64,000 nt of DNA from an uncultured Planctomycetia bacterium (GCA_964642015.1 CAZXLF010000001.1:181541-245540), one strand, 5' to 3'. Shown: positions 37,761 through 41,363, numbered from the stretch's first letter. Numbers and translations are program-made. Notes: a model not told the origin generated them from the letters alone.

Positions 37761-38582
37761 ATGAACCCGTTCAAGCAAGTCATATTGGCAACATTCTTAT
37801 TGCTAGTCTTAAGCCCGCTGCTTTTCGCCGATACCGTTTACCTTAAGAACGGAAGCCGCATGGACGGCGTGATCAATCGCGAAGACAAAGACGGTGTTGA
37901 GTTGGATCTTGGATACGGCACGACCACGTTCAGTCGCTCCGAGATCGACCATATTGAAAGATCTGACGCTGAAGGAACGCAAAAGATCTGGCAGACCTGG
38001 GGGGAAGAGCAGAAAGATATTCAAAACCGCATACCTGAAGAGCAGCAGAAATGGAGCAGGCGTCAACAGGAGATCGAACGTCTCCGGAAGGAACAGGAAC
38101 AGGCAAAAAGGGACAAAGATGAATACTCGCCTAAAGAACTACAAGTGGTTTCTAAAAATGGGTCGATGTTGGTCAAGGTCTTGATAAATGAAAAAACTGC
38201 GGCGACGCTGGTTTTCGATTCGGGAGCGAATGATGTCGTATTGACGCGACGGGTAGCACAGATGCTTGGTGTCGATCCGGATAATTTGCCAAAACAAACA
38301 GTGCAGGTTGCCGACGGCCGGATGGTGTCGCAAGGTTCCATGGTTCTTGAAAGCGTCAAACTTATAAACGCCGGTCCCGAGCCTGATGCCGGTAAAGCAT
38401 CTGTTATTGAGGTCAAAAATGTAAAAGCGGGCGTGGTCCTGGATGAGCAGCAAAAAGGCGGGTTGGAGGATGGGCTGCTTGGTATGTCATTCCTGAAAAA
38501 TTTTAAGTTCAATGCCGATTATAAAAGTAGTAAAATCACTTTCGAGAAATTAAAGGACGTAAATGCCAGCGAGCAAAGCTAA
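37761..38582 (+). CDS. secreted retropepsin-like (clan AA) aspartic protease domain protein
   Basis: Signal peptide. A coiled/charged linker. C-terminal LVFDSGAND (D-S-G-A catalytic motif of retropepsin-like proteases). Confidence 0.6.
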   Translation: MNPFKQVILATFLLLVLSPLLFADTVYLKNGSRMDGVINREDKDGVELDLGYGTTTFSRSEIDHIERSDAEGTQKIWQTWGEEQKDIQNRIPEEQQKWSRRQQEIERLRKEQEQAKRDKDEYSPKELQVVSKNGSMLVKVLINEKTAATLVFDSGANDVVLTRRVAQMLGVDPDNLPKQTVQVADGRMVSQGSMVLESVKLINAGPEPDAGKASVIEVKNVKAGVVLDEQQKGGLEDGLLGMSFLKNFKFNADYKSSKITFEKLKDVNASEQS

Positions 38583-40254
38583 GATATTAAGGGAACTTTT
38601 CAAGAGTCAGCCGATTGTCCGAATTGCCGGAGCTCACGATGGTTTGGGCGCGAAGCTTATAGAAAAAAACGGCTTTGACGGGGTTTGGGCCAGCGGTTTC
38701 GAAGTGTCCACTTCCTATGGCGTGCCGGATGCGAATATTTTGACGATGACCGAATATCATCATGCGGCATCGGTGATGAATGAAGTGTCTTTGCTTCCTG
38801 TGGTATGTGATTGCGATACCGGCTATGGCAATTCGTCCAACGTGATCCATATGGTAAAAAAATACGAAGCGTCGGGCCTTGCGGCGGTCGTGATCGAAGA
38901 TAAAAGATTTCCCAAGGTGAATAGTTTTATTCCCGGCCGGCAGGACCTGGCCAGTATGGAGGAATTCATGGGCAAGATCGAAGCGGCCAAAAATGCCCAG
39001 ATCGATCCGGCGTTCATGGTCTTCGCGCGCGTGGAAGCGCTGATCGCCGGATGGGGGATGGATGAAGCGCTGAAACGTGCATACGCATACGCCGAATCAG
39101 GCGCCGACGGCATCGTGATCCATTCCAATGCTTCAACGCCGGACGAAATATTTGAATTTTCCAAACGCTGGAAGGGATCGATACCTCTCGTAGCCATTCC
39201 CACCACTTATCATCAAGTGACCGCTAAAGAATTGGCGCGCCATGGGTTCAGGATGGTCATCTACGCCAATCAAGCGTTGCGTGCTTCGATCCGCGCAATG
39301 GACGAAGCGCTTTCAGCGATACGCGCTTTGGATTCTTCAGATGCGGTTGAAGACAAGATCACGCCTATGCGGGAGGTGTTTCATATTCAAGGCATGTTCC
39401 AGATGAAAGAAGATGAAAAGCGCTTTAGCAAGCAAGAAGAGATCCAAGCAGTGATCCCGGCAGCGGGCGATCATGCGGCGCAGTTGGGCCTGGGAGAGAT
39501 CTTGAAAGATAAACCGCTCTGCATGGTACCGATCGGGGGTAAGACGCTTGTTCAGCGTCAGGCAGATATGCTGCGCTCATGCGGAGTCAATGACATCTCT
39601 ATCGTCGGAGGATATCGAGGGGAGAAGATCCAGATCGATTCAGCGAACATCCTTTATAATTCTGATTTCAAGATCACGAACAACGCCTATTCGATCATGT
39701 TGGCCAGAGAATATTTCAAATCCAAATGTGTGATGGTATACGCCGACATCATTTTTGATCGACAGATCTTGGAACGTCTTTTAGAAAGTTCATATCCGAT
39801 AACGCTTGTGATCGACCGCGCGTACCAGAGCCTGCCTTTCAGAAAAAAGAATTTGGACCTAGTGATAGCTGAAGATACTTCCAAACAGGGCAATGGACGT
39901 AATTTAAAATTGAATCAGCACCGGCCGATATCGAAGATCGGAAAACTTGTCGATAAAGCCAAAGCCAATTATGAATTCATCGGCATGGCATTTTTCCGCG
40001 AGGAAGGATTACGGATCTTATCCGATTCCTGGGATCGGGCAATATCCAAGTTCAAGAACAAGCCCTTTTATGAGGCTCCCAGCGTGGACAAAGCGGATTT
40101 CACGGATCTGGTCCAATACATGATCGATCAGGGAGAGTCAATTTACGGTCTTGAGATCGAGCACGGCTGGTCTGAGATCCATTCGATCGAGGATCTGGAT
40201 CGTGTGAGTCAGCATTATAACGCTTCCGCGAAGACTTCATTCGCAAAATCATGA
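38563..40254 (+). CDS. pepM: phosphoenolpyruvate mutase fused to C-terminal LicC-like nucleotidyltransferase (cytidylyltransferase) domain
   Basis: The N-terminal 290 aa match PEP mutase of the ICL/PEPM family (ELFKSQPIVRIAGAHDGLGAKL...VCDCDTGYGN...VIEDK). The C-terminal 270 aa carry an NTP-transferase motif (VIPAAGDHAAQLG...KPLCMVPIGGKTLV). Confidence 0.85.
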   Translation: MPASKAKILRELFKSQPIVRIAGAHDGLGAKLIEKNGFDGVWASGFEVSTSYGVPDANILTMTEYHHAASVMNEVSLLPVVCDCDTGYGNSSNVIHMVKKYEASGLAAVVIEDKRFPKVNSFIPGRQDLASMEEFMGKIEAAKNAQIDPAFMVFARVEALIAGWGMDEALKRAYAYAESGADGIVIHSNASTPDEIFEFSKRWKGSIPLVAIPTTYHQVTAKELARHGFRMVIYANQALRASIRAMDEALSAIRALDSSDAVEDKITPMREVFHIQGMFQMKEDEKRFSKQEEIQAVIPAAGDHAAQLGLGEILKDKPLCMVPIGGKTLVQRQADMLRSCGVNDISIVGGYRGEKIQIDSANILYNSDFKITNNAYSIMLAREYFKSKCVMVYADIIFDRQILERLLESSYPITLVIDRAYQSLPFRKKNLDLVIAEDTSKQGNGRNLKLNQHRPISKIGKLVDKAKANYEFIGMAFFREEGLRILSDSWDRAISKFKNKPFYEAPSVDKADFTDLVQYMIDQGESIYGLEIEHGWSEIHSIEDLDRVSQHYNASAKTSFAKS

Positions 40255-41363
40255 TTTCTCCGAAGGAATTCGTCAAAGCCTGCCAATCCAGAGGTTTTTT
40301 ATGTTTTACCGGAGTGCCTTGCTCTTTTTTTCAGGCTGCGATCAATTACGTGATCGATGAGCCGTCACTGGACTACACGATCGTTCCGAACGAAGGTTCC
40401 GCTTTGGCATTGGCTTCTGGCGCTTACTTAGCGGGCAAACCGACCGTATTGATGATACAGAATTCCGGATTTGGAAATCTCGTCAATCCTCTCACATCTT
40501 TGAACATGATCTACAAGATTCCGGTGCTGATCTTTATCAGCGGTCGGGCGTATGGTATTCCTGATGAACCGCAGCATGAGGTTATCGGCAAAACGATGGG
40601 ACCGGTCCTTAAAGCGCTTGGTGTGAAGCATCAGGATATGCCGGATGATTTTTCTTCGTTCGAGGATGCGCTTGATGAAGCAGTGTCTTGGATGAAAAAA
40701 GAGAAACAGCCTTTTATATTTTTTGTGAGAAAGGGCAGCATTGACGATTATTCTCCGGCAAAGCGAAATGGATCCAAATATCCTCTAAAAAGGATCGAGG
40801 CGATCGATATCATATCCAAACATTTAAAAGGCGATGAGTTTGTGATCGCGACGACCGGAAAACCATCACGGGAACTTTTCAGCATTTCTGACCGTAGTAA
40901 AAATTTCTATATGCAGGGTTCGATGGGCCATGCGGCTTCGATAGGCCTGGGTGTTGCGCTTAATTCTCCGAAAAGCAAAGTGATAGTGTTAGATGGTGAT
41001 GGGGCGATCCTGATGCATATGGGAATACTCTCCTCAGTTGGACATTATAAGCCGAAGAATTTTTGTCATATTGTGCTTGATAATGAATCTTATGAGACAA
41101 CCGGCGATCAAGACACCACCTCCTCGACAACTGACCTGAGAGCAGCCGCAAAAGCTTGCGGTTATGCGATCGTTGAAGAAGCCGAGACAGAAAACAGTCT
41201 GAAGATCAAGCTTAAAAGAGTTTTGCAAGCCAAAGGGCCTGCGTTCCTACGCGTTAAGATCAATCGTCAGCCCACTTTAAATATCCCCCGCATTTCGTCC
41301 AAATACACTTCCGAGAATATCGCGGATAACTTCAAAGCGGACCTTGTCCGTTATTCCTCCTGA
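40251..41363 (+). CDS. ppd: phosphonopyruvate decarboxylase (TPP-dependent)
   Basis: 370 aa. N-terminal FLCFTGVPCSF, a TPP-binding GDGA motif (VLDGDGAILMHMG), and an ATGA overlap with pepM. Confidence 0.8.
   Translation: MISPKEFVKACQSRGFLCFTGVPCSFFQAAINYVIDEPSLDYTIVPNEGSALALASGAYLAGKPTVLMIQNSGFGNLVNPLTSLNMIYKIPVLIFISGRAYGIPDEPQHEVIGKTMGPVLKALGVKHQDMPDDFSSFEDALDEAVSWMKKEKQPFIFFVRKGSIDDYSPAKRNGSKYPLKRIEAIDIISKHLKGDEFVIATTGKPSRELFSISDRSKNFYMQGSMGHAASIGLGVALNSPKSKVIVLDGDGAILMHMGILSSVGHYKPKNFCHIVLDNESYETTGDQDTTSSTTDLRAAAKACGYAIVEEAETENSLKIKLKRVLQAKGPAFLRVKINRQPTLNIPRISSKYTSENIADNFKADLVRYSS

Follow-up and report, generated by a model that had tools for sequence, protein, structure and literature searches.

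Gene content and layout of the locus

The window, by which we mean the whole 64 kb stretch of DNA analysed, carries a Ppm fusion gene (38563-40254, + strand) encoding a protein of 563 aa. This protein joins a PEP mutase (Ppm) domain (residues 1-289; 38563..39429, +) to a nucleotidyltransferase (NTase)-like C-domain of the LicC/PntC fold (residues 290-563; 39430..40254, +), and the gene is followed by that of phosphonopyruvate decarboxylase (Ppd; 40251..41363, +; 370 aa). Read directly in the sequence, the ppd start overlaps the ppm stop codon in an ATGA at 40251-40254, which supports the translational coupling of Ppd to Ppm proposed before. ORF calls and Pfam searches placed both genes exactly at the coordinates given in the original prediction and also confirmed the two neighbours named there, a retropepsin-like protease gene upstream and spoVG downstream of ppd.

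The protease gene (Asp_protease_2; 37761..38582, +; PF13650, 4e-13), the product of which has a Lepto_7_Nterm-like N-terminus, shares 20 nt with the start of ppm. It is probably co-transcribed with ppm and lies outside phosphonate chemistry; syntenic relatives lack it, and in them comEC directly abuts ppm. In the window, comEC (35462..37750, +; Pfam Competence/DUF4131/Lactamase_B) and leuS (32873-35326) form the conserved left flank of the site at which the module is inserted. A terminator scan found no terminator between ppd and spoVG, and the 15 terminator-like sites that it returned are only a modest excess over the 7.4 +/- 2.9 expected; promoter-like sites were not enriched in the promoter scan compared with shuffled sequence. 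Elsewhere, att-type direct repeats were sought around the island in yifB and none was convincing. A Wza/Wzz/Wzy polysaccharide cluster lies downstream, and a FecR-like gene is found in the 1.9 kb past the window end.

PEP mutase domain and decarboxylase

The assignment of the N-domain as a genuine PEP mutase was borne out. Residues 9-253 match PF13714 (PEP_mutase, E = 2.8e-54), and in Foldseek the domain aligned to PDB 5UNC with a TM score of 0.95 and 55% identity, i.e., it has the ICL/PEP-mutase TIM-barrel fold. All nine positions that we take to make up the active site of the Mytilus PEP mutase (D58, D85, D87, E114, K120, N122, S123, R159, H190) are occupied in the alignment, in that order, by D56/D83/D85/E112/K118/N120/S121/R156/H187 of the window protein, and these nine residues are invariant across the family. 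The domain scored 309.2 bits with TIGR02320, ~10 below the equivalog trusted cut-off of 319.55, yet this is still the top-scoring model, 40 bits above that of phosphonopyruvate hydrolase. The shortfall is a marginal failure that is outweighed by the motif and active-site residue tests. The Ppm-specific motif EDKxxxxxNS, which sets Ppm apart from other ICL-family members (PMC6697681), reads EDKRFPKVNS at residues 112-121, and the aligned phosphonopyruvate hydrolase 2DUA has DTS where the window motif has VNS. In view of this motif, of the residues in the active site and of a coupled Ppd, we rejected the idea that the N-domain is a phosphonopyruvate hydrolase or some other paralogue in the ICL family.

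Ppd itself lies above the equivalog threshold of TIGR03297 (365.8 bits vs a cut-off of 312.5), and both PF02775 and PF02776, the TPP-binding C and N domains (TPP_enzyme_C/N), match. The Ppm domain would thus convert PEP to phosphonopyruvate, which Ppd would decarboxylate to phosphonoacetaldehyde, pulling the unfavourable Ppm equilibrium forward. This chemistry is the established biochemistry of both families, and it is family membership that is shown here; on that basis, the claim that the two enzymes commit PEP to phosphonoacetaldehyde is supported.

The fused domain and its nearest relatives

According to Rice et al. 2019 (Nat Commun 10:3698; PMC6697681), 59.5% of Ppm enzymes occur as fusions and 33% carry PF12804, and the Ppm + PF12804 fusion is already the commonest Ppm architecture. 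The order Ppm then NTase, at a length of about 560 aa, also recurred in all of the best 120 homologues listed. The fusion and its domain order, which the original prediction had singled out, are therefore not novel. The same applies to the supposed reversal of the Fom1 arrangement: since the cytidylyltransferase (CyTase) domain of Fom1 belongs to another Pfam family (PF01467, not PF12804; PMC6697681), the comparison offers no meaningful contrast. In Fom1 of Streptomyces wedmorensis, Ppm is likewise joined to a domain of the nucleotidyltransferase type, and the two act at non-adjacent steps of the pathway, but the Fom1 CyTase is N-terminal and the PF12804-like domain of the window is C-terminal.

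The fusions of Rice et al. combine, as here, PF13714, the EDKxxxxxNS motif and PF12804 beside Ppd, and in three oral anaerobes an extra stand-alone NTase lies 1-2 genes away, as it does in relatives of the window. In that study, however, fused domains were counted as NTases by Pfam membership, whereas the ~560 aa subfamily described here lacks the GxG(T/S)R...PK residues. Our search for literature on the characterisation of Ppm-fused domains or on phosphonate biosynthesis in Omnitrophota returned nothing beyond Rice et al. 2019 and Li et al. 2022 (Microb Genom 8:000781; PMC8942020).

That the C-domain has an NTP-transferase fold of the LicC/PntC type was confirmed by several lines of evidence. 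It scored 34.2 bits with PF12804 (cut-off 27), and an AF2 model, calculated from the window C-domain aligned with exact full-length family proteins, reached a pLDDT of 92.2. The fold search with the full-length model gave a list filled by Ppm-domain matches, and the C-domain was searched separately. Its best PDB match was Tde-PntC (6PD2, E = 1.6e-15), then LicC, with 6PD2, 1JYK and 4JD0 as top Foldseek matches and TM scores of 0.72 against Tde-PntC and 0.79 against Spn-LicC. The family profile matched LicC with E = 1.6e-18 and Tde-PntC with 5.6e-10; eIF2B epsilon was among the weak profile and fold matches.

Much of the core is retained. P318, G350, N366, S377, D395, E471, G474, W536 and E538 are common to the fused domain and its canonical paralogues, the metal-binding carboxylates D395 and E538 do not vary within the family, and the metal-binding Asp is kept in 77/77 fused domains and 39/39 stand-alone NTases. 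The window protein keeps every family-invariant residue of the C-domain. Among these is R446, invariant in fused domains and located on an insertion (about residues 420-452 of the fusion protein) that the canonical paralogues lack. Compared with Tde-PntC (the N-domain of Treponema denticola Tde1415, 6PD1/6PD2) and Spn-LicC (1JYK/1JYL), which share its fold, the window C-domain is only 15-20% identical, has no equivalents of Arg15 and Lys25, carries an acidic signature loop three residues longer in addition to the ~30-residue insertion with R446, and sits at the C-terminus of Ppm instead of being fused to an AEP transaminase (AEPT) or standing alone.

The signature loop

At the GxG(T/S)R...PK signature, the window protein reads GDHAAQLGLGEILKDKPL (residues 302-319). 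The G-x-G-T-R/K-L loop implied by the original prediction, which had itself named loss of this loop as grounds for rejection, is absent on alignment: the GxG(T/S)R part has become G-D-H-A-A, with Ala in the Arg position, and the position of the PK lysine, after P318, is held by L319. Independent HMMER alignments to LicC and to Tde-PntC (6PD1) gave an identical residue mapping of the loop. In Tde-PntC, Arg15 of GxG(T/S)R belongs to the pyrophosphate pocket and Lys25 is the PK lysine, the counterparts of which, FrbH K38 and YgbP K27, are essential (PMC6697681). Ala substitution of the signature Arg or Lys drops Tde-PntC activity to <10%, and when the Arg15/Lys25 equivalents are changed to Ala, Tde-PntC, FrbH and YgbP retain almost no activity (PMC6697681).

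The substitutions are not peculiar to the window. We compared 77 fused-domain relatives, from bacteria and archaea, with 39 stand-alone NTases from the same clusters. Arg occupies the aligned column in 0/77 fused domains vs 39/39 stand-alone NTases, and the PK Lys is present in 0/77 vs 38/39; in its place the fused domains have other residues (L40, V20, I9, T3, F2, P1, M1, R1). The loop is also longer in the fused domains (17.9 vs 14.8 residues) and differs in net charge (-1.3 vs +2.6).

K317 was considered as a stand-in for Lys25 and rejected, as only about half of the diverse family has a basic residue here. In 80 of the closest 118 relatives an Arg lies 3 residues past the AAG glycine and might partly substitute for the catalytic Arg; the window protein has Ala there. 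Other Ppm-NT subfamilies, of about 577 aa, retain the PK lysine, which leaves room for an active fused domain in some lineages.

Partner genes in the window and in relatives

As predicted, no AEP transaminase or dehydrogenase is adjacent to the module. Pfam searches of the 64 kb window detected no class-V aminotransferase, Fe-ADH, second NTase, CDP-alcohol transferase, radical-SAM enzyme or glycosyltransferase partner, and tblastn with 18 partner-gene clusters from relatives found no partner in it either. Thus, a complete AEP/HEP phosphonyl-tailoring (Pnt) cluster is absent and the window holds Ppm-NT and Ppd only. Among the best 120 matches, with one contig considered per genome, no close AEPT or Fe-ADH orthologue was found on the window's contig of 510,541 bp or on the 401,265 bp contig of the relative L016; many relatives had Ppm-NT and ADH/AEPT matches on contigs of equal size in the same set.

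Full clusters, the partner genes of which were assigned through Pfam, combine the fusion with a canonical NTase, an AEPT or Fe-ADH, and transferases of PF01066, PF04464 and PF00884. The canonical NTase accompanies the fusion in 32 of the 36 loci having an ADH or AEPT, and the relative L003 carries the full tailoring gene set. The bare Ppm-NT + Ppd module occupies the leuS-comEC site in at least six genomes (L002, L004, L005, L016, L017, L074), which are Omnitrophota-like (a placement taken from the relatives' names), distinct at species level and 57-71% identical; about 9-10 kb flank it on both sides in the window, L004, L016 and L017. In the window's clade, drawn from a neighbour-joining tree without bootstrap, the downstream genes have probably been lost from the locus. 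This situation resembles the unclassified phosphonate neighbourhoods termed 'Post-Ppd other' by Li et al. 2022, in which Ppm and Ppd occur with none of seven recognised branch-point enzymes nearby. Here, the absence of a branch enzyme spans 64 kb, and probably the 510 kb contig, at one chromosomal site across a clade.

Function of the fused domain

For the locus as a whole, we put the balance of probability slightly in favour of a coupled two-gene phosphonate starter operon, in an Omnitrophota-like bacterium, the fused domain of which is not an ordinary phosphonate cytidylyltransferase. The domain would have kept its nucleotide- and metal-binding core and had its pyrophosphate-binding signature loop rebuilt. 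In complete clusters, the job of the cytidylyltransferase would be done by the separate canonical NTase, partnered by an AEP transaminase or Fe-ADH and a CDP-alcohol, TagF-like or sulfatase-type transferase; the bare module would yield phosphonoacetaldehyde, any further tailoring being encoded elsewhere. Because the catalytic Arg and Lys are absent and a canonical enzyme stands alongside in 32/36 loci, the fused domain is probably not the pathway's cytidylyltransferase, and from these sequence features we infer that it has lost that activity. It looks rewired or regulatory and not decayed, since the core is kept and an invariant Arg has been gained in a private insertion.

What such a domain might do is suggested by other members of the fold. 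GMPPA and the pyrophosphorylase-like domains of eIF2B gamma/epsilon are NTase folds in which the signature loop is altered and which bind ligand without catalysis; GMPPA, a paralogue of GDP-mannose pyrophosphorylase with no catalytic activity, senses product and regulates by feedback. Both offer a precedent for regulation, with a specific sequence relationship to the fused domain being absent. The fused domain may still bind a cytidine nucleotide or CMP-phosphonate and could either act as a product/nucleotide sensor gating the first committed enzyme or catalyse a rewired reaction. That the PF12804-like domain of this large, cross-domain Ppm subfamily is a repurposed nucleotide- or CMP-phosphonate-binding module, for example a GMPPA-like feedback sensor, is a tentative proposal to which we give somewhat less than an even chance.

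The retained metal ligands and R446 could also be compatible with a rewired, still functional cytidylyltransferase. The domain would then be an active, divergent PntC that converts AEP or HEP to a CMP conjugate for glycan or lipid decoration, with an unlinked transaminase or reductase, which we regard as rather unlikely, if the strongest of the alternatives. Its best fold matches are indeed Tde-PntC and then LicC, the metal-binding Asp/Glu and nucleotide-binding core are invariant, and R446, together with R427/K429 in close relatives, could restore the positive charge; moreover, Rice et al. 2019 treated fused domains as PntCs (PMC6697681), and the bare-module clade has no other NTase nearby. 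Against this stand the missing Arg15 and Lys25 equivalents, given how nearly dead the corresponding Ala mutants are, an acidic loop that fits a triphosphate poorly, and a second canonical NTase in about 90% of branch-enzyme clusters, which would be redundant if it catalysed the same reaction. The original proposal that the fused domain makes a CMP-phosphonate is therefore unsupported: the PK position is non-Lys in 77/77 (Leu in the window), Arg is replaced by Ala, and relatives' clusters almost always hold a canonical NTase.

The loss is confined to pyrophosphate-binding elements, with those for base, ribose and metal retained, and this would also suit a catalyst acting on an NMP conjugate and not on an NTP, for example one that transfers or hydrolyses a CMP-phosphonate produced by the canonical PntC. 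The Fom1 CyTase, which comes into play several steps later than the Ppm domain to which it is fused, provides an analogy, the invariant Arg on the private insertion would fit, and the consistently co-occurring canonical NTase could supply a CMP conjugate. We nevertheless hold this to be improbable, as there is no citable precedent within this fold subfamily, full clusters already contain dedicated transferases (PF01066, PF04464, PF00884), and the bare-module clade has no nearby source of a CMP conjugate. Least probable is a reading in which a full phosphonate cluster is decaying and the module left of it makes nothing useful. The downstream genes of L003 and sister clades are missing and the window protein has lost even the usual Arg305, but both ORFs are intact, all Ppm catalytic and family-invariant C-domain residues are retained, and Ppd exceeds its equivalog cut-off. 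At least six other species-level genomes, 57-71% identical, have kept the two-gene arrangement at this site, which indicates purifying selection.

Implications for phosphonate biosynthesis

Phosphonates make up a significant pool of phosphorus and include bioactive compounds, and in current cluster annotation any PF12804 domain that lies near Ppm is taken to be a CMP-activating enzyme. The module described here is of a known, common type; what is unusual is a fused domain without two catalytic residues and the missing downstream genes in its lineage. A widespread Ppm-fused version that lacks both needed residues, with a canonical copy alongside, calls for caution when CMP-phosphonates are inferred from domain architecture. 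If the fused domain is truly not a cytidylyltransferase, the 'predominance of nucleotidyl activation' reported for phosphonate biosynthesis would in part reflect a misassigned domain, and the bare Ppm-NT + Ppd module would make a phosphonoacetaldehyde-derived product without CMP activation. For this organism, the formation of phosphonoacetaldehyde is the only firm prediction, and the decoration of glycans or lipids is putative.

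A phosphonate starter module of known architecture

Two forward-strand genes were called where the original prediction had placed them: ppm (38563–40254, 563 aa), encoding a PEP mutase (Ppm) fused to a C-terminal nucleotidyltransferase (NTase)-like domain, and ppd (40251–41363, 370 aa), encoding phosphonopyruvate decarboxylase (Ppd). Their stop-start overlap, read directly in the sequence, is ATGA, which establishes the proposed translational coupling. The ppd product contains TPP_enzyme_N/C domains (Pfam) and matches the decarboxylase equivalog of NCBIfam with 365.8 bits (cut-off 312.5).

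The N-terminal domain is a genuine PEP mutase, as had been claimed. Pfam places PEP_mutase at residues 9–253 (E = 2.8e-54), and the best NCBIfam model is PEP mutase as well (309.2 bits, 10 bits below the model cut-off). The protein contains EDKRFPKVNS, corresponding to the Ppm-specific EDKxxxxxNS motif by which Rice et al. separate mutases from other isocitrate lyase (ICL)-family proteins (PMC6697681); it thus keeps the N-S pair that is altered in phosphonopyruvate hydrolase 2DUA. In the alignment, D56, D83, D85, E112, K118, N120, S121, R156 and H187 pair in this order with the Mytilus active-site positions D58, D85, D87, E114, K120, N122, S123, R159 and H190, and the full-length AlphaFold model (pLDDT 88.5) superimposes on Streptomyces PEP mutase 5UNC with a TM score of 0.95 at 55% identity. 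The Ppm equilibrium strongly favours PEP, and Ppd renders the pathway irreversible, yielding phosphonoacetaldehyde. Judged by the established family membership of both proteins, Ppm would form phosphonopyruvate and Ppd would drive the irreversible step to phosphonoacetaldehyde.

The fusion itself is an already known, common architecture. Among non-redundant Ppm proteins 59.5% are fused, most often to PF12804 (33%) (Rice et al. 2019, PMC6697681), and Ppm fusions to the phosphonate cytidylyltransferase PntC are frequent (Li et al. 2022, PMC8942020). A search with the window protein returned 3324 proteins at E <= 0.001; the best 120 of these all share the Ppm-then-NTase layout (54–100% identity, mostly ~560 aa), several being named Candidatus Omnitrophota MAG proteins. 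The remark that the domain order is the reverse of that in Fom1 is true, but carries no weight, because the fusion and its order are widespread and the N-terminal CyTase of Fom1 belongs to another family, PF01467 (PMC6697681).

Genomic surroundings

The flanking genes are those originally described (Pfam/NCBIfam), a retropepsin-like gene upstream and spoVG downstream; the former (Asp_protease_2, 37761–38582) shares 20 nt with the start of ppm, and spoVG is followed by yraN and the beginning of yifB. The retropepsin-like gene, whose N-terminal domain is of Leptospira type, was found beside ppm only in the window, and comEC directly abuts ppm in the relatives' loci L002, L004, L005, L016, L017 and L074. 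The yifB/comM gene (42146–55429) is split, its N-terminal 79 codons lying in ORF 42146–42502 and the remainder within ORF 54026–55429. Between them lies an ~11.7 kb opposite-strand insert (about 42383–54108), across which the sign of GC skew flips. It encodes a large serine recombinase, an IstB-like ATPase, a resolvase, a ThsB-like TIR protein, a ResIII/DEAD helicase and an N6/N4 DNA methylase; its recombinase, TIR, helicase and methylase genes mark it as a small defence island that has integrated here. Were this island absent, ~4.5 kb would separate ppd from a downstream polysaccharide export and assembly set (57611–63653: BBP2_2 porin, Wza-like Poly_export, Wzz/tyrosine-kinase-like protein and a Wzy_C O-antigen-ligase-like protein that also has TPR and CBM60 domains), which may be an acceptor pathway for a phosphonate. 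Rfam and ARAGORN detected tRNA-Ala(GGC) (31403–31476) and tRNA-Leu(CAA) (31669–31753) in the window and nothing else.

The fused domain keeps the fold and lacks the signature

That the C-terminal domain has an NTP-transferase fold is established. Pfam finds NTP_transf_3 at residues 315–410 (34.2 bits, cut-off 27), and the fused-family profile matches LicC (1.6e-18) and the phosphonate cytidylyltransferase Tde-PntC (6PD1, 5.6e-10). An AlphaFold model of this domain alone (pLDDT 92.2, pTM 0.90) has Tde-PntC 6PD2 (E = 1.6e-15, TM 0.72) and LicC (TM 0.79 on target) as its nearest solved structures. The catalytic signature residues are absent, however. Such NTases are defined by the consensus GxG(T/S)Rx4-8PK; in Tde-PntC, Arg15 and the first motif residues form the pyrophosphate pocket, Lys25 touches the alpha-phosphate, and alanine mutants at Arg15, Lys25 or Lys153 keep <10% activity, while equivalent Lys mutants of FrbH and YgbP lose activity entirely (PMC6697681). 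The corresponding region of the window protein reads IPAAGDHAAQLGLGEILKDKPLCMV; alignment revealed no G-x-G-T-R/K-L loop, on which the original assignment had been staked. The Pro of the PK pair is kept and followed by Leu, and of 118 close relatives 117 have L/V/I at the lysine position and the remaining one has His. Position 305, the sole candidate for the Arg, is occupied by R in 80 of these relatives and by Ala in the window protein.

This loss is systematic and has apparently not been remarked on before. We aligned 39 stand-alone NTases with 77 fused domains from species-representative genomes (43–71% identical) of Omnitrophota, Planctomycetota, Chloroflexota, Desulfobacterota, ANME-1, Woesearchaeota, Undinarchaeota and one Pelagibacteraceae SAG, the stand-alone enzymes coming from the same gene clusters. 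The PK lysine occurs in 38/39 stand-alone and 0/77 fused sequences, the Arg of GxGTR in 39/39 vs 0/77; the second Gly of GxG, present in 34/39 stand-alone enzymes, is P or H in most fused domains. The signature loop is longer in the fused form (17.9 vs 14.8 residues) and its net charge is −1.3 vs +2.6. A library-wide search with the C-domain alone gave the same division: stand-alone homologues (~250 aa, ~30% identity) show the textbook AAGxG(S/T)RL..T..PKCM, which Ppm-fused homologues lack. The PK lysine is retained in another Ppm-NTase subfamily (~577 aa, EDKxFPKRNS), which confines its loss to the ~560 aa subfamily. Three further ~560 aa proteins (P0140, P0141, P0151) form a third fusion class, probably not a PEP mutase, in which EDNxFPKRCS replaces the Ppm motif of the ICL/Ppm-fold domain and the NTase-like domain keeps the PK lysine and not GxGTR.

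The metal-binding Asp (D395) is present in all 39 stand-alone and all 77 fused sequences. Since P318, G350, N366, S377, D395, E471, G474, W536 and E538 are common to both forms, the nucleotide- and metal-binding core of the fused domain is intact. R446 is invariant in the fused form only and sits in a ~30-residue insertion (about 420–452) missing from the stand-alone enzymes.

Gene clusters of relatives and the bare module

For 80 loci of relatives, ORFs were predicted and grouped into clusters, and the recurrent clusters were named with Pfam. Typically, the fusion gene and ppd (whole or split) are accompanied by an Fe-dependent alcohol dehydrogenase (Fe-ADH, 23 loci) or a class-V aminotransferase (AEPT, 14 loci) and a stand-alone canonical PF12804 NTase (45 loci), often also by a PF01066 CDP-alcohol phosphatidyltransferase (18 loci). 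Radical-SAM or B12-radical-SAM enzymes, EamA transporters, glycosyltransferases and TagF-like (PF04464) or sulfatase-family (PF00884) transferases occur occasionally. Many full clusters, among them L025, L053, L060, L064, L011, L051 and L077, combine the fusion, Ppd, Fe-ADH or AEPT, and a canonical NTase with a B12-binding radical-SAM enzyme, resembling the early fosfomycin set Fom1, Fom2, FomC and Fom3; the organisms that carry this set are uncultured Planctomycetota, Omnitrophota and Undinarchaeota. L009, L014 and L020 have Fe-ADH and NTase and lack the main-cluster Ppd. No Ppd was recognisable within ~9 kb either side of the fusion in L013, L018, L019, L022, L026 and L028, some of which border GT9 heptosyltransferase-like or methyltransferase genes.

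As originally noted, the module has no transaminase or dehydrogenase nearby: none of 18 partner-gene clusters from relatives was found in the 64 kb window, the lone match being that of the stand-alone NTase cluster to the fused domain itself, and the other genes are housekeeping. In a neighbour-joining tree the window protein clusters with L002, L006, L016, L004, L005 and L017, which share its leuS-comEC-[Ppm-NTase]-Ppd arrangement, seen with flanks of ~9–10 kb to either side in the window, L004, L016 and L017; L074, not included in the tree, has this synteny too. The absence of all downstream genes is conserved in the window's clade. L003 nests inside this group, yet carries Ppd-AEPT-CDP-OH transferase-NTase at another site. 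Among the best 120 matches each to the L003 AEPT (down to 51% identity) and the L008 Fe-ADH (down to 37%), none lay on the window's 510,541 bp contig or the 401,265 bp contig of L016; as a positive control, many other matches of the fusion lay on contigs equal in bp to those of AEPT or ADH matches. Partner genes are therefore probably absent from the half megabase around the module, as judged from these best 120 matches per query.

Possible roles of the fused domain

The original prediction read the fused domain as a cytidylyltransferase and deduced a CMP-activated phosphonate. This is not supported, as the signature residues are absent and 32 of the 36 loci having ADH or AEPT encode a separate canonical NTase. 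In those loci the other genes already supply the whole logic of activation followed by transfer, which speaks for a different function of the fused domain; we infer that this domain is not the PntC of the pathway. The intact core, together with the private invariant R446, argues for a predicted functional ligand-binding site and for a domain that is rewired rather than decayed, and cytidine nucleotide or CMP-phosphonate would be its likely ligand. A regulatory or rewired role is favoured. The domain may be a sensor, for which GMPPA provides a precedent: this NTase paralogue is inactive, has an altered signature loop and senses GDP-mannose. It may also be a catalyst whose basic residues have relocated, or an enzyme working on a nucleoside-monophosphate conjugate.

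Altogether, the window encodes an ordinary phosphonate starter module, and neither the signature loss nor the clade-wide lack of downstream genes is categorically new. The interest of the module lies in these two features, the lost signature of the fused domain and the conserved absence of downstream genes, both of which are cheap to test.
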